A stretch of 64,000 nt of DNA, from contig CAYRXZ010000001.1 in NCBI GenBank assembly GCA_964428615.1, positions 2,334 through 66,333 on the forward strand, in the 5' to 3' direction. The notes under the pieces are model-generated. The model ran no database searches, was not told the origin of the DNA, and worked only from the letters and a program-made list of their open reading frames with translations. Shown here piece after piece: positions 32,850 through 56,821 of the stretch (position 1 is its first letter; each line of letters begins with the position of its first letter). Position numbers and translations under genes: made by a program. This stretch comes from an uncultured Candidatus Saccharibacteria bacterium. GTDB lineage: Bacteria > Patescibacteriota > Minisyncoccia > UBA6257 > UBA9933.

Positions 32850-34232
32850 TTAAGGACTTGATGTAATAATTCTTAAAGCGTCGTTTGAACGGACCGAAAC
32901 ATAAATAATATTGTCTTCATAATCTATGCCTGTAGCCATTTGTGGAAAATTAAAAAAACTCCATAACAAAGGACTGGAAGGATTGGAAATATTATATATT
33001 TTAAATTCCGCGTTGGCGTCTTCCGTTACCAAAAAAGCCAAAGAACCGGCTGAAACAATATCGCGAGTTTTATCGCCGATTGAAACTGAACCAACGATTG
33101 CCATATTGGAAACGTCGGAAGCGTTAACGATATAAAATTTTGTTTTTTCGCCAACCAGTATCTTGTCTTCGCTTTTTGAATAAACACTATAAGTATAATC
33201 GCCGATGTCGATTGACCCCAAAATAAACGGCGAGGTTGAGCTTACCACATCAACCACAATCATTCCTCTTTTAAAATCTTCAGTACCTAAATAAGCCCGA
33301 TTATTTAAAACATAAATGTCATTAATTCCATTGCCAACGCCTGAAAGGCCGGAAACTAATGAAGGATTTAAAGGATTATTCACATCAATAATTGAAAATT
33401 CCTGAGGGGCTCCGCTGGCGCGGCCGACATAAACATAATTATCCCAATAAAATATTGTTAAAGCGTCGGCATCGCCGGGCAAATCAAGAGAAGCTATTTC
33501 AACCGGCGCCGACAAATTACTAACATCAACAACGATGAATTCCTTATTATCATCCTTGCCGACCGTATAAGCGTAATTGCCGGCAACATCAATACTATTT
33601 AACCCTTCTCCCATATTAAGACTGGAAATAATAAAAGGACTTTGACCGTTGGCGGCATCAACGATAAAAAAATCCGGTTTGGTTTCAACACTCGCGATTG
33701 CCGAAAGATAAATAATTTTATTTTTAACATCTAAATCGGTGGCGGAAACTCCAGCTCCAAGATCAATTGAGCCCAAAGTTCGAGGATTTTCCCAATTGCC
33801 CGAAGGAGGACTTCCTCCGGTATCGCCGCCGGTCTCAAGAACCACCTGCTTATCCGTAATTAAAGTAACTAATTCAATTTTTTGCGGCCGCAATTTTTCA
33901 ATTTGCCAACTAACACGACTGATAATTTTTTTAGTATAAGTGTCAATATTATCAATAATTATTTCTTTTAAATAAATATCTTCCGTTGATGAACTTGATA
34001 TTAAAGAATTAAAATCTTGTTTGCCAGTCGCCCAAGCAGTTTCCAAAATTTGACGATTAAGATAAAGCGCCTGGTTACTCAATTCTGCGTCTATCGCCGT
34101 TGACTGATTCCCAAAAGAAATTATAACGGCGGCAGCAATACTTGTCGTTAAAATAAAAAGCGAAATAAGGATTTCCAGAGTGGATTGCCCCGTAGAATAA
34201 TTTTTTTTATTACCAATTAATTCTTCCTTCAT
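32850..34232 (-). CDS. Pilus-associated protein with N-terminal pilin-like helix and LVIVD-repeat beta-propeller
   Basis: 460 aa; TLEILISLFILTTSIAAAVI N-terminal helix; repeated ~40-aa units (FIVVDVSNLSAP, FSIIDVNNPLNP, MIVVDVVSSTSP, FKIYNISNPSSP) typical of LVIVD repeats. Confidence 0.45.
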   Translation of the reverse strand: MKEELIGNKKNYSTGQSTLEILISLFILTTSIAAAVIISFGNQSTAIDAELSNQALYLNRQILETAWATGKQDFNSLISSSSTEDIYLKEIIIDNIDTYTKKIISRVSWQIEKLRPQKIELVTLITDKQVVLETGGDTGGSPPSGNWENPRTLGSIDLGAGVSATDLDVKNKIIYLSAIASVETKPDFFIVDAANGQSPFIISSLNMGEGLNSIDVAGNYAYTVGKDDNKEFIVVDVSNLSAPVEIASLDLPGDADALTIFYWDNYVYVGRASGAPQEFSIIDVNNPLNPSLVSGLSGVGNGINDIYVLNNRAYLGTEDFKRGMIVVDVVSSTSPFILGSIDIGDYTYSVYSKSEDKILVGEKTKFYIVNASDVSNMAIVGSVSIGDKTRDIVSAGSLAFLVTEDANAEFKIYNISNPSSPLLWSFFNFPQMATGIDYEDNIIYVSVRSNDALRIITSSP

Positions 34233-34659
34233 TTTGAATTGATATTATTGACGAACGCGTCTCATTGGTCATGGTAATATTTCCTGTAATATTAGGGTTG
34301 CCTGTTAATTGTTCAAAAACGACTTCCTCTAAACCACCGCGAGTTATCGCTTGATTGGCTTTAATAATTTCATCATAAACGGTATCGCGCGATAAATAAT
34401 TTTCGCCTTGAAAAATTATGTATTCGCTATTTTTAAGATAAACGCCATGCTTGACCTCATTGATATTCGTCAACGATTGATTTCTGGCTTTCTGAAGAAC
34501 GCTGACTATTAGATTACGTTCGGAATTAAAACCATGGCTTTTATAGAAATCGATGCCGACAAATAAACCCAAAGCTCCAAGCGCAACAAAAATAGTCATT
34601 GCTATTAATAATTCAATAAGGGTGAAGCCCCTGTTATCTAAGGTTTTGGGTAACTTCAT
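34210..34659 (-). CDS. Major pseudopilin (GspG/ComGC-like), prepilin leader MKLPKTLDNRG|FTLIELL
   Basis: Class-III signal peptide; ORF-track start at 34713 likely over-extended, ATG at 34659 fits leader length. Confidence 0.6.
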   Translation of the reverse strand: MKLPKTLDNRGFTLIELLIAMTIFVALGALGLFVGIDFYKSHGFNSERNLIVSVLQKARNQSLTNINEVKHGVYLKNSEYIIFQGENYLSRDTVYDEIIKANQAITRGGLEEVVFEQLTGNPNITGNITMTNETRSSIISIQNEGRINW

Positions 34660-35689
34660 AAATTGGCGTAATAATTGAAAGAGCGACGAAACCGACAATC
34701 GCCCCCATAACAACCATTAAAAGCGGTTCTAAAACAGTTGATAAATTTTTTGTCATTTCATCAAGTTTTTTTTCGTGGAATTCCGAAAGGTATAAAAGAG
34801 TTTCGCTCAAATTACCCGTTGCCTCGCCGATAGCAATTAATTGCGAAAGCATTGGCGGAAAAAGACGCTGTCTCTTTTCTAAATGTTTTGAAATTTCCCC
34901 GCCACCGGAAATTTCTTTGGCTATTTCTTTAAATTCTTTTCTGTAAATAAGATTGGGCAAGCTATCAGCCGTAATAGAAAGAGCTTCAACGACTTTAACA
35001 TCGCTTTTGAGAAGCAAACTTAAAGTTCGACAAAAGTTCGCCATATTATAATTTTGGGAAATATCGCCGACAAGCGGCGTATAAAGAATTAAACGATCGG
35101 TAAAAAAACGAACCGATTTTATTTTCAACATTAACCAAGCGGAGATAATCATTATAATAATTCCAAAAACAACATAAACACCATAAATTAAAAGAAATTC
35201 ACTGACATTAATAAGAATTCTAGTGGTAATGGGAAGTTGGACTTTCAAACTTTTAAAAATCGGCAGAATTTTAGGAAAAATATAAACTGTTAAAAGACCG
35301 GTAATTATAAAAGTGGCGATAACAATAATAATCGGGTAGATAAGCGCGCTAAGCACTTTACGGCGCAGCTCCCGTTTTTTATTTAATTCTTCCGCCAGAT
35401 AATTTAAATTTTCATAAAGAATGCCACTAGCTTCGCCGACTCTGATGACATTAATCATTAAATCACCAAAGACGCCTTTAAAACGTTCCAAGCTGGTGGA
35501 TAAAAACTGACCATTGGCAATATCTTCGGTAATTTGCCCGAGAATTTCTATCATCGATTTTGACCTCGCCTGTTTTTGAAGAAGTTTAACGCTGTCCAAA
35601 ATCGGCATGCCGGCCTTAATCATCACCGCCAAATTTTTGGCAAAAATGATTTTTTCCTGCAGTGGAATCCAAAAGAAAAATTTATTCAT
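34634..35689 (-). CDS. Type II secretion/type IV pilus platform protein (GspF/PilC/ComGB family)
   Basis: 351 aa; two T2SS-F repeats with 3 TM segments. Confidence 0.7.
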   Translation of the reverse strand: MNKFFFWIPLQEKIIFAKNLAVMIKAGMPILDSVKLLQKQARSKSMIEILGQITEDIANGQFLSTSLERFKGVFGDLMINVIRVGEASGILYENLNYLAEELNKKRELRRKVLSALIYPIIIVIATFIITGLLTVYIFPKILPIFKSLKVQLPITTRILINVSEFLLIYGVYVVFGIIIMIISAWLMLKIKSVRFFTDRLILYTPLVGDISQNYNMANFCRTLSLLLKSDVKVVEALSITADSLPNLIYRKEFKEIAKEISGGGEISKHLEKRQRLFPPMLSQLIAIGEATGNLSETLLYLSEFHEKKLDEMTKNLSTVLEPLLMVVMGAIVGFVALSIITPIYEVTQNLR

Positions 35690-36896
35690 TGATTACTCTT
35701 AATATTTCTTCGACCGTGGTAATGCCGCTTATAACTTTTTGGAAACCGTCTTCAATCATAGTGGTCATTCCGTTTTTGATGGCAATCTTTTTTATTTCGC
35801 CAGCGTCAACCTTTTTTACTACAGCTGCTCTTATTTCATCATCCATTTCTAAAACTTCATAAATGCCGATTCGGCCGCGATAACCACTATGGTCGCATTT
35901 ATCGCAACCGCTACCCTGATAGAAATTTTTGTAATTCGCCAAAATTTTCCCAGGTAAAACACCTGAAAGACTTTTTATTTCATCTTGGGTGATAGATTTT
36001 TTAATTTTACAATCCGAACAAATTTTTCTCACCAATCGCTGGCCAATAGCGAGATTAATGGTGGAGGCGATTAAAAATGGCTCTATTTCCATATCAATAA
36101 GCCTAGGTAAAGTTGTGGCGGCATCATTGGTATGTAAAGTGGAAAGAAGAAGATGACCTGTTAGAGCGGCATTAATTGAGATCGAAGCGGTTTCTTCATC
36201 GCGAATTTCACCAACCATAATAATATTCGGGTCTTGTCTTAAAATAGAACGGAGGCCTGTGGCAAAAGTCAAACCGGTGCGCGGATTAACTTGAATCTGG
36301 TCTATTCCTTCAATAGCATATTCAATCGGGTCTTCAATAGTAATAATGGAAATTTCCGGCGTATTTAAAAGTTTGATCAAAGTATAAAGAACCGTTGTTT
36401 TCCCGGAACCGGTCGGTCCGGTAGAAAGAATCATTCCATAAGGTTTTTTAACGGCGTTAAGAATTTTCTTTTTATCCCTTTCACTAAAACCTAAGGTTTC
36501 TAAAATAAATTTTCCCGTTTTTTCCGCCAAAAGCCTTAAAACGGCATTTTCGCCGTAATAAGTCGGAGCGATGGAAACTCTGATGTCAATCGGGCCGACT
36601 TTTTTAATGACAAGACGGAAACGGCCATCTTGAGCCGCTTGATGCTCGTCGGTCCTTAACCCTGAAAGAACTTTAATTCTGGTAATTATTTCTGAATGAA
36701 TTTCCTTAGGAAAAATAAAACTATCATGAAGTACGCCATCAATTCTTAATCTGACCCGCAAACGTTTGTCTTCCGGATCAATATGAATATCAGAAGCTCT
36801 ACTTTCATAAGCATGTTCGATTAAGCTGTCTATCAAATCAATAATCGAAATTTGCTCTCCTTTTTTAATCTCTTGATCAATATTTTTTTTAGGCAT
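35682..36896 (-). CDS. Type II/IV secretion ATPase (GspE/PilB/ComGA family)
   Basis: 404 aa; Walker A GPTGSGKTT, Asp/His boxes, tetracysteine CSDCK...CDKCDHSG zinc motif; lacks N1 domain like ComGA. Confidence 0.75.
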   Translation of the reverse strand: MPKKNIDQEIKKGEQISIIDLIDSLIEHAYESRASDIHIDPEDKRLRVRLRIDGVLHDSFIFPKEIHSEIITRIKVLSGLRTDEHQAAQDGRFRLVIKKVGPIDIRVSIAPTYYGENAVLRLLAEKTGKFILETLGFSERDKKKILNAVKKPYGMILSTGPTGSGKTTVLYTLIKLLNTPEISIITIEDPIEYAIEGIDQIQVNPRTGLTFATGLRSILRQDPNIIMVGEIRDEETASISINAALTGHLLLSTLHTNDAATTLPRLIDMEIEPFLIASTINLAIGQRLVRKICSDCKIKKSITQDEIKSLSGVLPGKILANYKNFYQGSGCDKCDHSGYRGRIGIYEVLEMDDEIRAAVVKKVDAGEIKKIAIKNGMTTMIEDGFQKVISGITTVEEILRVINE

Positions 36897-36919: not shown

Positions 36920-38047
36920 TTAAATTTCTTTTTCCAGATCTTCTAAAATTTTTCTTGCCTTTGCGCTAACTTTTTTCGGCGTTTTAACTTTTAATTCTAC
37001 GATTAAATCACCTCTGCCAAACCCGCCAAACCTAGGCATTCCTTCTCCGCGAATCTTCAAATTCTCTTTTAAATCAAAATCTGCCGGAATTTCAATCTTT
37101 AATTTATTACCTGAAATAGTCAGAATATCAATCTTTTTATCTAACATCAAATCAATCATTTTAAAATCTTTTCTTATTATCAAATCATCTTCTTGCCGTT
37201 TAAAAATCTGGTGCGATTTAATTTTGATAATTATATAAAGGTCTCCTTCTTTAGCTCCGCGTTCGCCTGCTTCGCCTCCCCCCTGAATTTTTATTATTTG
37301 TCCGTCGGCAATGCCGGAACGAATTTCTATCGTTGTATTTTTTTCACCCATTACTTTGCCGACGCCACGGCAAACTTCGCAAACTTTTTTCGGAATCTGT
37401 CCTGTGCCAAAACATTTAGAGCAAGATTTTACTTGCATAATATCTCCAAAAAAACTTTTACGAATTTCTTTTATCTCACCTCTGCCGCCGCAAGTTTCGC
37501 ATTTATCAAAACCGGCTTTAGCGTCATGACCCAAGCCACTGCACTTTTCGCATTTTATCGAAACCGAATATTTTATTTTTTTCTCTGCCCCACGATATGC
37601 TTCTTCTAAATCTATTTCCTGAACTATTTGGACATCAGCTCCGCCATGATATGAACGGCGCTTTTGTTTTACACCCATACCTTCAAAAAACGCATCAAAT
37701 ACATCGCTCAAATCTCCAAAGTCGCCGGAAAAATTGACATTTGCTCCTCCAAAATCGAAACCAAAAGGATTTCCCTGAGTTCCGCCGAAGGGCCCGCCTT
37801 GCGAAAAATCAAATCCGTTAAATCCTCCGCCGGCTTGCTGACCGCCATCAAATACTCGGCCGAATCTGTCGTATTGTGCCCGCTTTTCTTTACTAGACAA
37901 AACTTTATACGCTTCGCTTATTTCCTTGAATTTCTTTTCGTCGCCGCCCTTGTCGGGATGATATTTATGCGCTAATTTCCGAAACGCTTTTTTAACGTCC
38001 TCTTCCGAAGCTCCCTTATTTATGCCAAGAATTTTATAATAATCCAT
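36920..38047 (-). CDS. dnaJ: Chaperone DnaJ
   Basis: J-domain [33 protein letters not shown], Gly/Phe region, four CxxCxGxG zinc-finger repeats. Confidence 0.85.
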
Positions 38048-39033
38048 TATTTTAAAATGACATTCTCTTTGCTTCTTCCTTCAAGTATAATCGTGCCGAA
38101 ACCCAAAGCCAAAAGAGTTTCATAAAGTAAAAACGAAACAAAAGCGGCAAGTAAACGAATTGGCCAAATAAAACTAATAATAACTAAAAATATGAAAACT
38201 GCAACCAATATTGGAGTAGAATTTAATATATTGTCCGGCAATGAATAAAATTTAACCGCTAAAAAGTCATACATCGTGTCGGAAAGCTTGCTTTGAAAAT
38301 TCAGCTGCGTCCCGGCCATACCCATTGCCTGACTTTTTACCTGTTGAATTGCATTACCTAATAATTCTTCTTTTATAGAATCTGGCAAAAGGCTAAGTTG
38401 AGGATTATTTTCAAGTTCCTTTGTGGCGATACTTCTTATCATTTCTTCTGTTGAACCGGCAAGATTAAAACCGGGCATAATTTTTTCCAAAACCCCATTA
38501 TCCGTTATTGGAGAAACTACAACATTGAAAGCATTTCGTGAGATAAAAAAGTCTTTATCGCTAACATCTATAAAACTTGCGCAAATAACTCCAGCAAACA
38601 CCGCTATTCCGGCAACCACCTTGGGTAAAACTTTTTTAGCAACTTTCCAAAACTTTATTTCAAGAGCATTTTCAATTTCTTTTCTGCCGGCATAAATGCC
38701 GGATACAAAAAATAAAAGGCCTAAAATTATCCCAACGCCAACCATTAAAGAAAATCTATCGTAAAAAAAGATAAAAAATGCCAAGCTTTGAAATAAAACC
38801 GCCAAAACAACCATCCATCCGGTTTTAATAAAGAAAACACAAAGCAAAAACACCGCCATGAAAGCAAGCGCCATTAATGAAGACAATAAAAGATTATTCC
38901 CGCCGCCGCTAACCATAAAAACCTGTACAAAAAATCCCGAAGCAAAAGAAAACACAACGCCGAAAAGCGACAAAATAATTATTTTAACCCTTGAACGGTC
39001 TAATGAAACCTCATCTGTTCCCGATGAATCCAT
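38047..39033 (-). CDS. Hypothetical polytopic membrane protein inserted between dnaK and dnaJ
   Basis: 328 aa; 6-7 TM helices; no known family. Confidence 0.3.
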
Positions 39034-39053
39034 AATTATATTATAGCAAATTT

Positions 39054-40925
39054 TTATTGATTAGGAGAATTTTGCTCTTTATTATCTTCATCACCCCCAT
39101 TGCTTTCATTGCCTTCTTTTTTTTCGGCATACATCGCTTGCCCTATTTTTTGAAGCTCTAAAGAAAGTTCGGAAGCGGCTGATTTTATTTCTTCAATATT
39201 CTGCGATTGATGAATTGAAGTTTTAAGTTTTTCAACTTTTTGATTTATAGAATCTTTAAGTTCGGCCGAAATTTTATCGCCAGCTTCGCTCACTGATTTT
39301 TCAGCTAGATAAACCGTCTGCTCGGCATGATTTTTTGCTTCTGCTAATTCTTTTTTCTGCCTATCTTCTTCGGAATGCGCCGCAGCTTCTTGTTTTAATT
39401 TTTCAACGTCTTCTTTTGAAAGCTGGGTTGAAGCTTCAATGCGAATTGATTGACTTTTACCGCTAGCTTTATCTTTTGCCGAAACATTCAAAATGCCATT
39501 AGCATCTATATCAAAAGAAACTTCAATTTGTGGAATGCCACGCGGAGAAGGCGGAACTCCGTCTAAAATAAATTTCGCCAAAGTTTTGTTATCTAAGGCC
39601 ATAGTGCGTTCGCCCTGTAGAATGTGAATTTCAACTGAAGTCTGATTGTCAGCCGCCGTTGAAAAAACCTGCGACTTTTGTGTCGGAATCGTTGTATTTT
39701 TTTCAAGAATCGGAGTAGCTACTCCGCCATATGTTTCAATGCCTAAAGTTAAAGGAGTAACATCTAAAAGTAAAACATCTTTTACATCGCCTTGAAAAAT
39801 TCCGGCTTGAATCGCAGCGCCGGCAGCAACAACCTCATCGGGATTAATTCCTTTATGCGGCTCTTTTCCAAAAAACTTTTTAACTGCTTCCTGAATGGCC
39901 GGCATTCTTGTCTGACCTCCAACCATTACTACTTCGTCTATTTCTGAAGGCTTAAAACCAGCTTCTTTAATTGTCTTTTCAACTAATTCAATTGAGCGTT
40001 CTATTTCAGCCTTAACAAGTTCTTCTAGTTTGGCGCGAGTAAATTTTAAAAGAAAATGTTTCGGCCCGGAAGTGTCAGAGGTTATATAGGGAAGATTTAT
40101 TTCACTTTCAAAGGCTGTTGAGAGCTCATGCTTGGCGCGTTCGGCCGCTTCTTTTAACCGCTGTAAAGCCAGTGGGTCACTCGAAATATCAATGCCTTCT
40201 TGTTTTTTATATTCTAAAACCAAGAATTCTATTATTTTTCTATCAAAATCATCTCCGCCCAAATGTGTATCTCCACCGGTAGCTTTTACTTCAACCGTTT
40301 CATCGCCGACTTCCAAAACAGAAATGTCAAAAGTCCCACCTCCAAAATCGTAAACCACAATCTGCTCATTTTTCTTTTTATTTAAACCGTATGCCAACGC
40401 TGCGGCTGTCGGTTCGTTTATTATTCTACGCACTTTCAGGCCGGCAATTTCTCCGGCATTTTTAGTTGCTTGTCTTTGAGAATCGTCAAAGTAAGCCGGA
40501 ACCGTAATAACCGCTTCTTCTATTTTTTCTCCAGTCTTCGCTTCAGCATCGGCTTTTAATTTTGCCAAAACCATAGCTGAAATCTCTTCCGGCTTGTACC
40601 ATCTGTCCGCCATTTTTATTTCCACTCCGCCAGTTGAAGATTTTTGAATATCAAAAGGAAGCCATGCCTTATCGCGCTGAACTTCTTTGTCTTCAAAATT
40701 GCGGCCAATCAACCGCTTAACCGAAGAAATTGTATTTTTAGGATTAACCACCGACTGTCTTTTTGCCAATAAGCCAACTAAGCGTTCGCTTGCCTTTGAA
40801 ATTGCGACTACAGAAGGCGTGGTACGGTTACCTTCGTGATTTTCTAAAATTTTCGGCTCGCCCGCTTCAATAATTGCCATCGCCGAATTTGTTGTTCCTA
40901 AATCTATTCCTAAAATTTTAGCCAT
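39054..40925 (-). CDS. dnaK: Chaperone DnaK (Hsp70)
   Basis: 623 aa; [27 protein letters not shown] Hsp70 signatures. Confidence 0.95.
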
Positions 40926-40948
40926 AGTAATTTATATTATTTTTTTTA

Positions 40949-41467
40949 TTATTTCGCTACTTTTACTCTTGCCGGTCTTATAATCTTACCGTGTAGAGAA
41001 TATCCTTTTTCGACCTCTTCAATTATTGTTCCTGAAGGTTTATCTGACTCAACTGACGCCACTGCTTCTTGTAAGCTTGGGTCAAACGGCTGACCGACTG
41101 ATATAATGACCCTTTCTAATCCACTAAGTCTCATTATGTCTTCCAGTTGTTGGCGTATCAAATAAAGCCCTTTTTGCATTTTTGATTCTTCATCACCTCC
41201 AAGTGTAACTAATGCTAAATCAAAACTGTCTAAAACCGTTATTAAATCTTTTACTATTACTTCGTTAGCGAATTTCACGATGGCTTCAAACCTTTTTGAC
41301 TCGTCTTTTTTATAATTTATAAGATCCGCTTTTGCTCGTTTCCAACCATCAAGGTATTCATCACGTTGTTTTTCGCAGTCGTAATCGCACGAACTGCATT
41401 CCGTCTGTACGTTGGACTCTTCTTTTTTTTCTTCCTTTTTATTTTCTTTTTTTATGTCGTTTTCCAT
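40949..41467 (-). CDS. grpE: Nucleotide exchange factor GrpE
   Basis: 172 aa; coiled-coil then GYSLHGKIIRPARVKVAK C-terminal GrpE block. Confidence 0.8.
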   Translation of the reverse strand: MENDIKKENKKEEKKEESNVQTECSSCDYDCEKQRDEYLDGWKRAKADLINYKKDESKRFEAIVKFANEVIVKDLITVLDSFDLALVTLGGDEESKMQKGLYLIRQQLEDIMRLSGLERVIISVGQPFDPSLQEAVASVESDKPSGTIIEEVEKGYSLHGKIIRPARVKVAK

Positions 41468-41510
41468 AATTCAAATTTTTTAATAATTTATAAAACAACT
41501 AACAAAACAA

Positions 41511-41538
41511 AGTATAACAACTCATTGACGATCGTCAA
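41511..41538 (-). promoter_or_regulatory. Putative sigma70-type promoter of grpE-dnaK-dnaJ embedded in operator palindrome (-35 TTGACG, 16 nt, -10 TATACT)
   Basis: Minus-strand read: TTGACGatcgtcaatgagttgtTATACT ~37 nt upstream of grpE ATG. Confidence 0.4.
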
Positions 41539-41550
41539 TAGTTTGTTATA
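41513..41550. promoter_or_regulatory. 38-bp near-perfect palindrome TATAACAA(C)T(C)ATTGACGATCGTCAATAGTTTGTTATA (operator candidate) between regulator gene and grpE
   Basis: 2 mismatches to perfect copy at 42164..42201; centred on GATC. Confidence 0.5.
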
Positions 41551-41562
41551 CTTCGCTAAATT

Positions 41563-42153
41563 TTAAAAATTAAGCATTTCGTCATCGTCGACCTCACCCA
41601 CTGTCATTAATTTTATACAATCATTTAATTTCCTAAAAAGAATTTCTTCATAAAAATCTTCTGCTAATGGACTTTTCCCCATGAAAACGCTTTTTTGAAT
41701 CGGCTTATATTCCAAAGAAATAAGCTGCCAGCGAAGCCAATTTCTGCCATCACGATTTTTTTCCGGTATATCAAACATTATTATTCTCCATTTGCCATCC
41801 CATTGCTCTTTTTCTTTTTCTTTTTCTTTAAAATTTTTTACGGCTCTTAAACCAAGGTTTGTTATCTGAAAACCTGTTTTCTTTTTTTCAACCAAACCCT
41901 TTTTTTGAAGCCGCCACAAAATAGTTCGAGCGCTTTCTTTTTTAAGATTTTTAAGCTCATCATAATAATCCCAAAAATCTTTTGTATCCATTACTCTTTG
42001 ATAGCTTTTTGCCAAACCTCTTTGGGGGCCAGCTAAAACTTCTGACAATGCTACCGCACCTCTTTCCGCCAAACCCAAAAGTAAAGCCATACCAGCCAAA
42101 CTAGTATTCATAGGTAAATCTCTTATTACTTGTTTTAATTGCTCTTTTTCCAT
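41563..42153 (-). CDS. PaaX-family-like winged-HTH transcriptional regulator (truncated, ~197 aa) at head of grpE-dnaK-dnaJ operon
   Basis: wHTH TILWRLQKKGLVEKKKTGFQITNLG resembles PaaX RTALFRLNKEGWLDVSRIGRRSFYSLSDKG; WDGKWRIIMFDIP matches PaaX WDGKWLLLL block; ORF-track start 42189 is a TTG inside the palindrome; ATG at 42153 preferred. Confidence 0.55.
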   Translation of the reverse strand: MEKEQLKQVIRDLPMNTSLAGMALLLGLAERGAVALSEVLAGPQRGLAKSYQRVMDTKDFWDYYDELKNLKKESARTILWRLQKKGLVEKKKTGFQITNLGLRAVKNFKEKEKEKEQWDGKWRIIMFDIPEKNRDGRNWLRWQLISLEYKPIQKSVFMGKSPLAEDFYEEILFRKLNDCIKLMTVGEVDDDEMLNF

Positions 42154-42163
42154 TCCAAAAAAG

Positions 42164-42201
42164 TATAACAAACTATTGACGATCGTCAATAGTTTGTTAT
42201 A
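42164..42201. promoter_or_regulatory. 38-bp perfect palindrome TATAACAAACTATTGACGATCGTCAATAGTTTGTTATA immediately upstream of PaaX-like regulator gene (autoregulatory operator candidate)
   Basis: Exact reverse-complement symmetry over 38 bp; contains TTGACG/TATACT promoter-like hexamers on both strands. Confidence 0.55.
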
Positions 42202-42302
42202 TTGGCTAATTTGTTAAAATATTTATCAAAGCACAATAATTTGTCAAAATGCCAGTCATCAAGTAAAATTATATTAGCTAATATAATTTTATAGTTAAAA
42301 AC

Positions 42303-43670
42303 ATGATTAAATTCTACAATACTCTTTCCGGTAAAAAGGAAGCTTTTAAACCACTTAAAAATAAAACAGCTCGAATCTACAATTGCGGACCGACGGTCTA
42401 CAACTATGCCCATATAGGCAATTTGAGAACTTATGTTTTTGAAGATATTTTGCGCCGTACACTTAAAGCGAATGGCTATAAAATAAAACAAATAACTAAT
42501 ATCACCGACGTTGAAGATAAGATTATTAAAAAAGCCCAACAAGAAAAAAAGGACATTTCTCAGATTACCCGCCCTTTCGAAAAAATATTTTTTGGAGACC
42601 TTAAAAAGCTAAACATTGAAAAATCCGAGCGTTATCCCCGCGCCACTGAACATATAAAAGAAATGATACTTATTATTTCCGCTTTGATGAAAAAAGGTTT
42701 TGCATACCAAGGAAAAGACAAATCAATTTATTTTAAAATTTCAAAATTTAAAAATTATGGCAAGCTTTCAAGATTAAAAAAACGCCAAATAAAAATTGGT
42801 GCCAGAATCGACAGCGACGAATATAAAAAAGATGATGCCCAAGATTTTGTTTTATGGAAATCGGCAAAGCCGAACGAACCGTCATGGCCTTCACCTTGGG
42901 GCACAGGCAGACCGGGCTGGCACATAGAATGTTCAGCTATGAGTATGAAATACCTCGGCGCACCACTTGATATTCACGCCGGCGGAGTAGATTTAATTTT
43001 TCCACACCACGAAAATGAAATCGCCCAATCGGAAGCTGCTACTGGAAAAAAATTCAGCAGGTTTTGGATCCACGGCGAACATCTTTTGGTTAACGGCGAA
43101 AAAATGTCAAAATCGCTCGGCAACATTTTTACGCTTCGCGATTTAGAAAAAAAGGGTGTTAATCTTTTAGCTTTCCGTTATCTGCTTCTTGGAACGCATT
43201 ACAGAAAAAAACTAAATTTTACATGGCAATCACTCAACGCCGCAGAGCACGCACTAAATAATCTTCACGAGTTTCTTGAGACAACTAAACAAATTAAAAC
43301 GCCTAGACACCTAAACACTAAAAAACTCAAACTTTATAAAGACCAATTTATCAGCGCTATTAATGACGATTTAAACACATCAAAAGCGCTTTCAATTGTC
43401 TGGCAAATTATTAAAGATAAAAACCTGCCAGCGAAAGATACAAAACGATTAATTTTCGATTTTGATAAGGTTTTAGGGCTTGAATTAAAAGATATAAAGC
43501 CCCTAAAAACCCAAAAAATACCTGACAAAATAACAGTGTTGGCGAAAAGGCGAGAGTTATTAAGAGTTAATAAACAATTTATTCAAGCCGACGCCTTGCG
43601 GAAACAAATAGAAAAGTTAGGATACCTTATAGAAGACACAACCAAAGGACCAGTCCTTTGGAAATCATAA
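42303..43670 (+). CDS. cysS: Cysteinyl-tRNA synthetase
   Basis: 455 aa; HIGN (HIGH) and KMSKS motifs, CGPT..Y.H zinc-binding start. Confidence 0.9.
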   Translation: MIKFYNTLSGKKEAFKPLKNKTARIYNCGPTVYNYAHIGNLRTYVFEDILRRTLKANGYKIKQITNITDVEDKIIKKAQQEKKDISQITRPFEKIFFGDLKKLNIEKSERYPRATEHIKEMILIISALMKKGFAYQGKDKSIYFKISKFKNYGKLSRLKKRQIKIGARIDSDEYKKDDAQDFVLWKSAKPNEPSWPSPWGTGRPGWHIECSAMSMKYLGAPLDIHAGGVDLIFPHHENEIAQSEAATGKKFSRFWIHGEHLLVNGEKMSKSLGNIFTLRDLEKKGVNLLAFRYLLLGTHYRKKLNFTWQSLNAAEHALNNLHEFLETTKQIKTPRHLNTKKLKLYKDQFISAINDDLNTSKALSIVWQIIKDKNLPAKDTKRLIFDFDKVLGLELKDIKPLKTQKIPDKITVLAKRRELLRVNKQFIQADALRKQIEKLGYLIEDTTKGPVLWKS

Positions 43671-45104: not shown

Positions 45105-45148
45105 AACAAAAGCCCATACTATCATATATGATAATATGGGCTTTTTAT
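45105..45148. terminator. Bidirectional rho-independent terminator (AGCCCATActatcatatatgataaTATGGGCT + T-run)
   Basis: Long hairpin between convergent dnaB (+) and pheT (-). Confidence 0.5.
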
Positions 45149-45178: not shown

Positions 45179-47191
45179 TTATCTGGTTTCTGCGCCGAAT
45201 TTTAATTTAAGAATTTTTTTTATTTTTCCCATTTCATCACTTGCTTCTTTTTCTTTAAGAGTGCGGTCTTCAGCCTGAAAAATAATTCTAAAAGTCAGAC
45301 TTCGCTTGTTATTCACCTCATACTCATCAATCATATCTACGTCTTCAATATATTTTAAATTGGATTCCTGAATAAGTTTCATCATTTCTCCAACTTTCGC
45401 TGTCGGATTCACCAAAACCGAAATGTCGCGCATAATTGAAGGATATTTAGATAGTGGTCTATATTCGTGTTCTTCTTCAATTAATTCTAATAAAATATCC
45501 AAATTTATCTCGGCTAAAACTGCCTCGGCGCCGGAATAATCAACCCTGCCAATATAACCGATAATTTTATCTTTAGATTCAATTTCTAAAATTTCTCCCG
45601 AAATCAAATTGCCAACAAAATCATTGACCCAAGCTCCTTTCCCCGGCTCAGGCATCATATAATCAACCAATCCTATATTCTTAAACATATTTTCGATATT
45701 TCCTTTAAGTTCAAAGAAAATTTGCTTGTCTTTTTTTGAAGCAATTAAAATGCCTAAATTTAATTTTTCCGGAGTATTATCGTAAAAGACTTTACCAATT
45801 TCAAAAATTTTAATGCCGTCAAAAAATCTAAAATTGGATTCTATATTTTTAATAAGATTAGACGCCAAAGAAGGCCTCATATATTTCGCCTGATTACTAA
45901 TAGGGTTTTCAAGTTCCAATAATTTATTTTTCCACGCTGGATTTTTACTTAAATCATTCTCGCTAATAAAAGAATAATTTAAAACCTCATCAAACCCGAA
46001 ACCTACCAAAACTTTTCTTAATTTATCTTTAAAAACAATTTTGTCTTCAAAACCCGATGGATGAATGTGAATTTTAGGTGGCTGCGATTTTAATTTATTT
46101 AAACCATAGAGCCTAGTAATTTCTTCCACCAAATCTTCAAAAATTGAAATGTCTGAACGCCAAACTGGGACTTCCACTAAAAATATATTTTTTGTTTTGT
46201 CCGCCGGTTGACGAATTGTTTTTTGTATTATTTTAAATCCAAGTTTATCTAAATAATCACGGCAGACTTTCGCATTTAAATCAACACCAATTAATTTTTT
46301 AAATTTTTCAACGTCAAATTTAATTATTTTTCTACCCAGCTGTATATGATTAACATCAATAATTTTTCCGGCTTTCACGTCGATAATCTCTTCAAGTAAT
46401 TGTTTTGCTCTATTTAATCCAATTTGCGCCAAAGCCGGACTAATATTATGCGAAAAGATTACCGAAGCGTCTGTTGCAATTTTAAGAGATTTTGAAGCCC
46501 TATAAATGCCGGTACCGGCAAAATTCGCCGCTTCAATAACGATTCTTTTTGTATTGGCGGTCACTTCGGCGACTTTTCCTCCTTTTATTCCAGCAATAGC
46601 TAACGGATTTTTAGAGTCTGTAATTACTAAAATATTTTCGTTTAAATCGTAATTTTTATCATCAAGTGAAATTATTTTTTCACCTTTTTTCGCTTTTCGT
46701 ATAATAATCTTAGATTGCGAAAGTTTATCGTAATCAAAAGCGTGCAACGGCTGACCGGTTTCAAGCATAACGTAATTCATAATATCAACCACCGCACTTA
46801 TCGGCCGTAATCCGCATTCTTCTAAAATATCACGCATCCATTTCGGAGAAACGCCGGCTTTAACATTTTCAAAATACTGACCCATATAGCGCGGACACAA
46901 TTTTTTATCTTCTATTAAAACGCTAAAATTGGCCTTAGCAAAACCGTTTTTCAAAGACTTTAAATCAAAAATTGAAGAGGTAAACTTTTTGCCATAAATC
47001 GCCGAAGCTTCGCGGGCAATACCAATATGAGAAGCCGCATCTGAATATCTATTTGCCGGAAGAGCAATTTCAAAAGAATTCCCGCTCAAATCAACCGCCT
47101 CAAAAGCAAATTCATTTAACTTTTTAATCAAATCTTTTTTACTTTTTACGGCCGGTACCAATTTTTTAATTAGAGTATAAGAAAATTTCAT
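45179..47191 (-). CDS. pheT: Phenylalanyl-tRNA synthetase beta subunit (short form lacking N-terminal tRNA-binding domain)
   Basis: 670 aa; starts MKFSYTLIKKL like PheT, B3/4 and B5 domains, C-terminal FDX-ACB-like region. Confidence 0.8.
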   Translation of the reverse strand: MKFSYTLIKKLVPAVKSKKDLIKKLNEFAFEAVDLSGNSFEIALPANRYSDAASHIGIAREASAIYGKKFTSSIFDLKSLKNGFAKANFSVLIEDKKLCPRYMGQYFENVKAGVSPKWMRDILEECGLRPISAVVDIMNYVMLETGQPLHAFDYDKLSQSKIIIRKAKKGEKIISLDDKNYDLNENILVITDSKNPLAIAGIKGGKVAEVTANTKRIVIEAANFAGTGIYRASKSLKIATDASVIFSHNISPALAQIGLNRAKQLLEEIIDVKAGKIIDVNHIQLGRKIIKFDVEKFKKLIGVDLNAKVCRDYLDKLGFKIIQKTIRQPADKTKNIFLVEVPVWRSDISIFEDLVEEITRLYGLNKLKSQPPKIHIHPSGFEDKIVFKDKLRKVLVGFGFDEVLNYSFISENDLSKNPAWKNKLLELENPISNQAKYMRPSLASNLIKNIESNFRFFDGIKIFEIGKVFYDNTPEKLNLGILIASKKDKQIFFELKGNIENMFKNIGLVDYMMPEPGKGAWVNDFVGNLISGEILEIESKDKIIGYIGRVDYSGAEAVLAEINLDILLELIEEEHEYRPLSKYPSIMRDISVLVNPTAKVGEMMKLIQESNLKYIEDVDMIDEYEVNNKRSLTFRIIFQAEDRTLKEKEASDEMGKIKKILKLKFGAETR

Positions 47192-56020: not shown

Positions 56021-56121
56021 AATTTTAAAATTTTTATAAAAATAAAAGAGGGATCGCTCCCTCACTAGCTTTAATATTATTATAACAAATTTGTTTCCAT
56101 AAAAATGTGGATAACTTATTC

Positions 56122-56159
56122 TTGCTTAAAGTGCACGCTATAGCGTATACTTTAAGCAA
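56122..56159. promoter_or_regulatory. 38-bp near-perfect palindrome TTGCTTAAAGTGCACGCTATAGCGTATACTTTAAGCAA in divergent promoter region (operator candidate)
   Basis: 2 mismatches to perfect copy at 56784..56821; contains TTGCTT-18-TATACT promoter-like spacing toward 56186 gene. Confidence 0.5.
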
Positions 56160-56185
56160 GACTTATTAAGTATAAATTGTAACAA

Positions 56186-56761
56186 ATGAGAATAACAAAA
56201 CATTGGAAGATTAACAACCTGACTAAAGATACTTTGTTAAAATTAGCTCTCGGAGGAGCGTTTATTTTAGTTTCTATTTCATCTCCATATTTTTTAAATC
56301 AAGTAGCTAAAAATTATTTTAAAGAAAAAAGCAAAAAAGCTGCATATGCACGGGCTAAAAGACTAGGCGAATTGGAAAAGAAAAAAATTATTTCATTCAA
56401 AGAGTCTAGTAACAACAAAATTAAAATAGAACTCACACATAAAGGAAAATTATTAGTAAGAGAATACAATCTAGATAATTTAAAATTAAATAAACCGAAA
56501 GTGTGGGATAAAAAATGGAGAATATTTATGTATGATATTCCCGACTATCACAAAAAAGCTCGGGATGCTTTTAGATTTAAAATAAAACAGCTCGGCTTAT
56601 ACCCACTCCAAAAAAGCGTTTGGATATCACCTTATGATTGTACGCCAGAGATTGAATTTCTTTGCGCTGTTTTTGATATAGACATTAATAGCCATGTTTA
56701 TCAACTAACAACAACTCAAATTCCAAAAGAACGAGAAGTTAAAAAGTGGTTTGATTTATAG
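56186..56761 (+). CDS. PaaX-family-like wHTH transcriptional regulator, paralog 2
   Basis: 191 aa; WDKKWRIFMYDIP...LGLYPLQKSVWISP parallels WDGKWRIIMFDIP...LEYKPIQKSVFMGKSP of 41563..42153 protein and PaaX WDGKWLLLL block. Confidence 0.55.
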   Translation: MRITKHWKINNLTKDTLLKLALGGAFILVSISSPYFLNQVAKNYFKEKSKKAAYARAKRLGELEKKKIISFKESSNNKIKIELTHKGKLLVREYNLDNLKLNKPKVWDKKWRIFMYDIPDYHKKARDAFRFKIKQLGLYPLQKSVWISPYDCTPEIEFLCAVFDIDINSHVYQLTTTQIPKEREVKKWFDL

Positions 56762-56783
56762 ATATATAATAGATTTTCATATC

Positions 56784-56821
56784 TTGCTTAAGGTATACGC
56801 TATAGCGTATACCTTAAGCAA
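56784..56821. promoter_or_regulatory. 38-bp perfect palindrome TTGCTTAAGGTATACGCTATAGCGTATACCTTAAGCAA downstream of regulator paralog 2
   Basis: Exact 38-bp dyad; second copy of the operator-like element bracketing the gene. Confidence 0.5.

Follow-up and report, generated by a model that had tools for sequence, protein, structure and literature searches.

In the HrcA/CIRCE system, the regulator is encoded by the first gene of the grpE-dnaK-dnaJ operon, and a palindrome is tied both to the promoter of the chaperone operon and to the regulator's own expression. HspR of Streptomyces and Helicobacter, whose element is HAIR, is a small helix-turn-helix (HTH) repressor that is encoded in the dnaK operon and also controls clpB; in Helicobacter, some of its sites are located a good way upstream of the core promoter. 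PaaX, the repressor of the phenylacetate catabolon of Escherichia coli, binds palindromic operators at promoters. Hardly anything is known of how transcription is regulated in the candidate phyla radiation (CPR, or Patescibacteria), members of which have tiny genomes with few recognizable regulators. Here we describe a gene, reg1, and two copies of a long palindrome, O1 and O2, at the head of the dnaK operon in a 64,000-nucleotide stretch of DNA (the window) from an uncultured member of this group (assembly GCA_964428615.1, contig CAYRXZ010000001.1, positions 2,334 to 66,333).

The most likely reading, which we regard as somewhat probable, is that reg1 encodes an autoregulated repressor that gates the dnaK operon; DNA binding, repression, looping, and a response to heat or unfolded proteins are the parts of it that we infer. 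The regulator and its palindrome form a real and apparently undescribed regulator/operator pair. No description of the short-PaaX family to which reg1 belongs, of its operators, or of a link to dnaK was found in the searchable literature, and nothing relevant was found on PaaX or HrcA in Patescibacteria/CPR or on CPR transcription factors with palindromic operators.

Results

The reg1 gene (41563..42153, minus strand) encodes a protein of 196 amino acids and starts with an ATG, the position of which agrees with 70 homologs. Downstream on the same strand come grpE (40949-41467), dnaK (39054-40925), an open reading frame (ORF) of 328 codons, orf328 (38047-39033), and dnaJ (36920-38047), which together make up the putative target operon (36920..41467); cysS (42303..43670, plus strand) is divergent on the far side. 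O1 (42164..42201) lies in the cysS/reg1 intergenic region, with its near end 10 nt from the reg1 ATG, and O2 (41513..41550) lies between the reg1 stop codon and grpE; neither is assigned a strand. An earlier reading of the window, made from the letters alone (the sequence-only reading), had called O1 a perfect 38-bp palindrome. It is one, of the form TATAACA-N9-CGATCG-N9-TGTTATA (TATAACAAACTATTGACGATCGTCAATAGTTTGTTATA in the minus-strand reading, 42201..42164). O2 (TATAACAAACTATTGACGATCGTCAATGAGTTGTTATA in the minus-strand reading, 41550..41513) was placed correctly but was said to differ by two mismatches, whereas it carries 3 substitutions relative to O1 (35/38 identical); it is also the core of a 44-bp imperfect palindrome (41510..41553). 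A scan of the window found O1 and O2 to be the sole sites in 64 kb at ≤4 mismatches over 20 conserved positions, and none of the dinucleotide shuffles of the window yielded a match to the palindrome.

Both members of this arrangement are conserved. A protein-anchored scan with one genome per species and a motif-anchored metagenome scan together gave 13 distinct loci in which a regulator (47 to 93% identity) is followed by grpE-dnaK(-orf328-dnaJ), and cysS is divergent upstream of the regulator in every syntenic locus whose flank is covered. The consensus site, TATAACA-N8/9-CGATCG-N8/9-TGTTATA (36/38 bp), has 20 fixed positions. It occurs just 5' of the regulator in all 13 loci, with 0 to 1 mismatch in those positions, and between the regulator and grpE in 11 of them. 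The palindrome had been proposed as a specific companion of the regulator and the grpE region, and this holds across the whole clade. Spacers vary among lineages, and even within a locus between its two copies, whereas arms and center are constant, a pattern that is the signature of selection on what would be contact positions. A search for GrpE homologs gave close relatives only, and the comparison of dnaK operon heads covers those.

Three sister regulators (L006, L008, and L009; 41 to 50% identity) precede ksgA/rsmA, identified by eye, rather than grpE. Residues of the recognition helix are altered in them, and the palindromes on either side, although similarly built, carry different arms (TTTAGCAT, TATAGCAC, and TTACATTTC); we count them in favor of a repressor acting at O1 and O2.

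The sequence-only reading had described the protein that heads the operon as a truncated winged-helix protein of the PaaX type with a WDGKW block, and profile searches largely bore this out. In Pfam, reg1 matched PaaX_M (PF20803) at residues 116 to 187 (E = 1.7e-15; 57.3 bits against a cutoff of 24), and weak winged-helix models matched residues ~60 to 114; we place the putative winged helix at about residues 18 to 105. The same search gave no match to PaaX_C (PF08223), the protein ending ~9 residues after PaaX_M, and no match to HrcA domains (PF01628/PF03444). The NCBIfam PaaX model (TIGR02277) aligned locally, over PaaX positions 33 to 134, with 28.1 bits against a cutoff of 264.55. With no PaaX_C, a score far under the equivalog cutoff, and no paa genes among the neighbors inspected, reg1 falls outside full PaaX membership. 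The PaaX_M match, the PaaX-type local alignment, and the missing PaaX_C together indicate that reg1 is a short PaaX relative, in which a probable, diverged PaaX-type winged helix is joined to a Cas2-like PaaX_M domain and the presumed aryl-coenzyme A (aryl-CoA) sensing domain is lacking.

The WDGKW block is invariant or nearly so across homologs, and W118, D119, W122, R123, F127, D128, P130, R137, Q153, and S155 are invariant. Two AlphaFold models of reg1 had mean predicted local distance difference test (pLDDT) values of 60.8 and 67.3; the Cas2-like domain was confident (pLDDT 83 to 92), the helix-wing region at residues 72 to 97 was moderate, and the first 70 residues were poor in both models. 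A structure search with the reg1 model returned PaaX (8A39) and Rv0674 as best matches, followed by Cas2 folds. Homologs of reg1 are ~180 to 210 amino acids long and come from metagenome-assembled genomes of the Wolfebacteria/Paceibacterota type. An exhaustive profile search gave at least 4071 cluster representatives at E ≤ 1e-10, almost all of those listed being 110 to 236 amino acids long, and the short-PaaX family is apparently confined to CPR bacteria.

Both palindromes contain a promoter-like element, TTGACG-16-TATACT preceded by TG. In O1 it points toward reg1 (42162..42189, minus strand), with the -10 ending 8 nt before the A of the ATG, and in O2 it points toward grpE (41511..41538, minus strand), with the -10 ending 43 nt before the grpE ATG. 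A mirror element in O1, TTGACG-16-TATATT, again with TG, points toward cysS (42176..42203, plus strand), and a further promoter-like element, TTGACA-18-AATATT, lies upstream of O1 at 42247-42218. The earlier claim that the TTGACG half-site of O2 doubles as the -35 of a grpE promoter was right as to the element, but the same element is found in O1, and a -35 that coincides with the palindrome is a feature of this genome and the relatives nearest to it only. Within the O2-grpE interval of this window, no sigma-70-like match is better than the element inside O2. Given where the -10 in O1 ends, a leaderless or near-leaderless reg1 mRNA would be implied, with the transcription start predicted from the sequence. 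A conserved putative operator over the -35 and -10 just 5' of the regulator, the layout expected of autoregulation, is present at O1, and 13/13 distinct loci have an equivalent site.

In most relatives, the downstream palindrome lies 1 to 5 nt (15 nt in L001) 5' of a separate consensus grpE promoter, TTGACA-17-TATAAT. An identical junction, TGTTATA-GATGC-TTGACAAGG, precedes grpE in one locus (L005) and clpB in another (L123), and at htrA (L128) a consensus promoter lies 23 nt from the site. This recurring composite of palindrome and promoter is our best evidence that the site would act, with either sign, on chaperone and protease promoters.

Shine-Dalgarno (SD)-like motifs precede only ~8 to 11% of ORFs of ≥150 amino acids in CPR loci L001 to L080. 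Of the regulator genes, 49% have a -10-like hexamer that ends 5 to 9 nt before the ATG, versus ~36% of other genes, and SD-like motifs precede ~10% of both, so that a leaderless-promoter signature does not discriminate regulator genes. The rarity of SD-like motifs and the hexamer in ~36% of genes suggest widespread leaderless translation in these CPR lineages, the hexamer figure being inflated by the AT-rich background.

The window encodes a second member of the family, reg2 (56186-56761, plus strand; 191 amino acids; PaaX_M E = 2.7e-20), within a cassette (56120..56821) that carries its own palindrome, TTGCTTAAGGTATACGCTA|TAGCGTATACCTTAAGCAA, on both sides. The upstream copy (56120-56161) is imperfect, and the downstream copy (56784-56821), between the convergent reg2 and mnmA, is a perfect 38-bp palindrome. 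These palindromes (38 to 42 bp; TTGCTTAAG...GCTATAGC...CTTAAGCAA, with TTGCTTAAG arms and a GCTATAGC center) differ from the O1/O2 type. The reg2 gene is a lone plus-strand gene in a series of minus-strand genes. A 199-amino-acid ORF and a 1627-amino-acid ORF, the latter with LTD and PKD domains in its L204 ortholog, are divergent from it, and mnmA converges on it from the other strand. Orthologous cassettes with palindrome pairs of their own lie beside efp-mnmA in three relatives (L204 to L206).

Flanking palindromes are a trait of the whole family. A high-scoring element common to the upstream and downstream flanks was found in 44/77 family loci from many CPR phyla and in 0/77 shuffled controls; these elements are palindromes of 28 to 50 bp with lineage-specific arms and with centers that are mostly CGATCG (32) or CGGCCG (24). 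This raises the possibility that paired palindromes are intrinsic boundaries of the regulator cassette. They would serve the regulator gene alone, through a 5'-3' autoregulatory loop, roadblock or hairpin insulation, or both, and the position next to grpE would be a coincidence of one clade with an ordinary constitutive dnaK promoter. We think that this is unlikely as a full account, yet it is a serious partial rival, and a boundary function may coexist with promoter control. Besides the family-wide pairs, it draws on the orientation of the downstream neighbor, which is convergent in 12/23 loci with strong palindromes on both sides, and on the downstream reg2 copy, which faces the 3' end of mnmA. 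It would also account for the terminator-then-promoter order in relatives (stop codon, palindrome, separate consensus promoter), for the predicted RNA fold of O2 (-24.8 kcal/mol) with its U-rich tail, and for the loss of the O2-type site in 2/13 lineages that retain synteny. It does not account for the motif away from regulator genes, before clpB and htrA, where the junction between palindrome and -35 is the same as at grpE, nor for the fact that the only good grpE promoter of this window sits in O2. Family-wide, moreover, there is neither a consistent T-tract nor a sense-strand G.U bias.

The motif-anchored metagenome scan gave at least 119 loci and at least 136 sites, of which at least 117 are unique. 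Only ~25 of the metagenome sites listed adjoin a regulator homolog, grpE, or cysS; the majority are located away from these. Among the matches listed, the other genes at sites include clpB, htrA together with a glycosyltransferase gene, def/fmt, typA, maf, dgkA, gltX, radA, and gyrA. The earlier suggestion that the motif controls chaperone operons thus gains clpB and htrA, but def/fmt, typA, maf, dgkA, gltX, and convergent gene ends do not fit it. Many metagenome sites end 0 to 20 nt before a start codon. Where both neighbors of a listed type-A site could be classified (63 sites), 38 were tandem, 12 divergent, and 13 convergent, and some type-A sites take up the whole interval from one stop codon to the other (at the ends of ychF, efp, and typA) with A- and T-tracts alongside.

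The sequence-only reading had held that occurrence at hundreds of unrelated loci would make the palindrome a generic repeat. We rejected that reading: the window has 2 copies, and 686 kb of CPR DNA fetched independently of the motif has 0 away from regulator genes, all 22 sites at ≤2 mismatches adjoining short-PaaX genes. One contig of 660 kb bears at least 3 exact sites, and the copy number fits a small regulon rather than a high-copy repeat.

We also considered a selfish or mobile module, similar to a REPtron or a repeat-duplicating cassette, in which the winged-helix/Cas2-like protein recognizes and propagates its own palindromes, and solitary copies are offspring or scars comparable to repetitive extragenic palindromic (REP) sequences. 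Each paralog is indeed flanked by its own specific palindrome, solitary copies are intergenic in all orientations and enriched at strand switches, reg2 is isolated in opposite orientation amid minus-strand genes, and the Cas2-like domain retains the conserved aspartate of FDIP. Against propagation, the cassettes are syntenic over 47 to 93% protein identity (reg1) and 74 to 76% (the neighboring MnmA), and the copies have diverged in their spacers while keeping the fixed positions, as expected of selection on binding sites and not of recent copying. The low copy number and the absence of transposase, Cas1, and HUH domains from reg1 (Pfam and PADLOC) point the same way; PADLOC gave weak Cas2-model matches only and no defense-system assignment. 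At mnmA, three relatives share the reg2 cassette in synteny, and three others, more distant, lack it; among the latter, no solitary palindrome is left in the gap of L208, and L207 and L209 have no intergenic space there. Recent movement of the cassette, for which we saw no sign in that synteny or in L208, was set aside. Of the explanations considered, a mobile module is the least probable.

As RNA, O1 and O2 are predicted to form very stable hairpins (-23.6 and -24.8 kcal/mol; z-scores of -7.25 and -6.25). They could in principle be RNA-level elements, namely, long AU-rich bidirectional terminator or attenuator hairpins of which the protein is not the ligand, with O1 as a leader attenuator fed by the element at 42247-42218 and O2 as the reg1 terminator. 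A scan picked out O1 as resembling a terminator (a 17-bp stem with a 4-nt loop and the tail CTTTTTTGGA), O2 is followed by a U-rich tail, and the A- and T-tract-flanked sites in convergent stop-codon gaps would suit such a role. The palindrome stems, at 17 to 20 bp, are AU-rich, whereas the ordinary terminators of the window (24510, 28741, and 29281) are short GC-rich stems with loops. Terminators would have no reason to keep 20 positions fixed across lineages or to come in paralog-specific copies, and sites such as O1 also lie in divergent promoter regions with nothing to terminate (cysS|reg1 and clpB|cysteine-desulfurase-like gene). Mismatches in the palindromes had no significant sense-strand G.U bias (G.U versus A.C, 46 versus 30), which fits a constraint at the DNA level rather than the RNA level. 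Nor did downstream copies show a consistent T-tract across the family, only 20% having ≥5 T in the next 8 nt. On these last two grounds a pure terminator was dropped as the main explanation, and we consider purely RNA-level elements very unlikely. An Rfam search of 40800-42500 returned only sub-threshold miRNA-hairpin noise.

Other features of the window and related loci

The product of orf328 is hydrophobic and conserved, a predicted membrane protein without a Pfam match. Homologs (25 to 42% identity) occupy the same position between dnaK and dnaJ in related loci, which indicates that orf328 is a conserved member of the dnaK operon of this clade. Just 3' of dnaJ, at 32850-36896 on the minus strand, are genes for a type IV pilus/type II secretion system (a T2SSE ATPase, a T2SSF platform protein, and N-methyl pilins) separated by very short gaps; they may be cotranscribed with the chaperone operon.

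Between O1 and cysS, a 28-bp perfect AT-rich palindrome, TAAAATTATATTAGCTAATATAATTTTA, lies at 42264-42291, 11 nt 5' of the cysS start. A solitary 38-bp zero-loop palindrome, AAAAGCCCATACTATCATATATGATAATATGGGCTTTT, lies at 45108-45145 between the convergent ends of dnaB and a 670-amino-acid ORF (45179-47191; pheT-like by eye). In length and build it resembles the regulator-flanking palindromes, but it is of a third sequence type and has no adjoining regulator; it could be a site for a paralog encoded elsewhere in the genome or a bidirectional terminator. GATC is strongly depleted in the window (66 observed against ~205 expected from base composition), and of only 5 CGATCG sequences, two are the centers of O1 and O2. 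This suggests a GATC-directed restriction pressure from which the operator centers would be exempt.

In the relative with a 66% identical GrpE (L200, 8792-9292), the slot between cysS and grpE holds a gene for a 119-amino-acid Trp-repressor-like HTH protein flanked by GC-rich palindromes, GCGCTCTA-N-TAGAGCGC, two upstream and one downstream. Regulator genes bracketed by palindromes of their own may thus be a wider habit in CPR genomes. A search for groEL and groES in all fetched loci gave a single groESL (L180), which is preceded by neither a palindrome nor CIRCE. The groESL promoter is TTGTCA-17-TATAAT (L180, 2600-2740), and a hairpin in the groES 5' untranslated region (AACCTGCC...GGGAGGTT) pairs with the SD-like GGGAGG and is a possible RNA thermometer.

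Discussion

This analysis demonstrates the family membership of reg1, the conservation and positions of its sites, and the synteny of the locus. We propose that reg1 recognizes specific DNA sequences and belongs to a large, CPR-specific family of short PaaX proteins, which combine a winged helix with a Cas2-like domain of the dimerization type, and that it would bind the 36/38-bp palindrome as a symmetric oligomer. At O1, the bound protein would cover the -35 and -10 of the leaderless-type reg1 promoter and of the mirror cysS promoter, resulting in autorepression. O2 contains the only good grpE promoter here, and its counterparts abut the grpE -35 in most relatives, so that occupancy of O2 could gate transcription of grpE-dnaK-orf328-dnaJ. 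The O2 hairpin or the bound protein might also limit read-through from reg1, and O1 and O2, ~650 bp apart, may cooperate by looping. Given the further sites at clpB, at htrA, and at a few more promoters, reg1 would control a small regulon that includes protein-quality-control genes, and in this clade it would take the part played elsewhere by HrcA/CIRCE or HspR/HAIR. A role in heat shock, like the direction of control, is proposed rather than observed.

Several observations weigh against such a repressor. The O2-type site is degenerate in two of the 13 lineages (L010 and L165), and the related lineage with a 66% identical GrpE has neither reg1 nor the motif at grpE, where a plain consensus promoter is found; no HrcA was identified among the called genes of that lineage and of related loci. 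In most relatives, the center of the site is near -58 of the grpE promoter, a position that is no less typical of activators than of repressors. Many of the genes adjacent to the metagenome sites listed are not stress genes, 13 of the 63 type-A sites that could be classified are at places where two genes converge and there is no promoter to regulate, and groES in the site-bearing contig L180 has no such site. The sequence-only reading had cast O1 and O2 as operators of a repressor of the chaperone operon, one of them autoregulatory. The pair is conserved and the motif recurs at clpB and htrA, but twin palindromes are found throughout the family, so the presence of O2 alone does not make it a grpE operator. 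The gene downstream of the second copy is convergent, as with reg2, about as often as it is codirectional (11 of the 23 loci with strong palindromes on both sides), and O2 could exist for reasons unrelated to grpE.

A more radical alternative, which we regard as improbable, is that short-PaaX proteins and their flanking paralog-specific palindromes of 30 to 48 bp are protein-marked boundaries of transcription units across the CPR and not ordinary operator/repressor pairs. The protein would bind palindromic DNA, possibly as a cruciform or hairpin, on each side of the gene that encodes it and at the borders of further transcription units. The outcome would be roadblock termination, insulation, looping, or, through the Cas2 fold, a self-propagation similar to that of REPtrons or CRISPR repeats, and the link to dnaK would be one clade's co-option. 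The second palindrome, which often faces a convergent gene, is an oddity that looping, roadblock, or insulation might explain.

If reg1 is an autoregulated repressor of the dnaK operon, as we favor, it would be a concrete candidate for the missing heat-shock or proteostasis regulator of one clade, a non-orthologous replacement of HrcA or HspR at the head of the operon, and a PaaX-type protein that works without a ligand-binding domain. The CPR would then have a large lineage-specific regulator family with predictable operators, since each gene bears its own sites on both flanks, and regulons could be predicted directly across thousands of uncultured genomes.

Comparison with known systems

Of the described chaperone regulators, HrcA is closest to reg1 in gene order, as each heads a grpE-dnaK-dnaJ operon with a palindrome at its promoter. 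CIRCE differs from the reg1 palindrome in sequence, length, and position, and groES in site-bearing L180 lacks the element. CIRCE (TTAGCACTC-N9-GAGTGCTAA) had 0 matches at ≤3 mismatches in the window, in line with the sequence-only reading, which had noted neither CIRCE nor HrcA there, although the genome may still encode HrcA elsewhere. HspR resembles reg1 in being encoded in the dnaK operon and in its control of clpB, and its upstream sites in Helicobacter are placed like the palindrome at grpE, clpB, and htrA in relatives of reg1. Unlike reg1, HspR is of the MerR type and is encoded at the end of the operon, and the HAIR sequence is unrelated.

Regulators of the Lrp/AsnC family (feast/famine regulatory proteins) share with reg1 the overall plan of an N-terminal winged helix and a C-terminal ferredoxin-fold oligomerization domain, with weak fold matches to 8q90 and 2dbb. 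There is no sequence homology, however, and the ferredoxin fold of reg1 is of the Cas2/PaaX_M type and not RAM. The REPtrons of REP-associated tyrosine transposases (RAYTs) resemble short-PaaX cassettes in that a gene is flanked by two copies of a gene-specific palindrome, with solitary intergenic copies that include convergent ends. RAYTs are HUH/Y1 transposases with tens to hundreds of REPs per genome, whereas short-PaaX proteins lack HUH/Y1 and their palindromes are few. The cassettes also keep stable orthologous positions, and selection appears on discrete positions and not on whole-element identity.

PaaX itself (PDB 8A39; PF07848/PF20803/PF08223) is the best sequence-profile and fold match to reg1, with a probably homologous winged helix followed by a Cas2-like central domain and with the W-D-G-x-W, FDIP, and QxSVF motifs in common. 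It is 316 amino acids long against ~196 for reg1, which without PaaX_C has no obvious part for sensing aryl-CoA. The PaaX site is roughly 15 bp, in comparison with 36 to 38 bp and three conserved blocks for the reg1 motif. Finally, reg1 differs from PaaX in its setting, having no paa genes nearby and being flanked by two copies of its putative operator.

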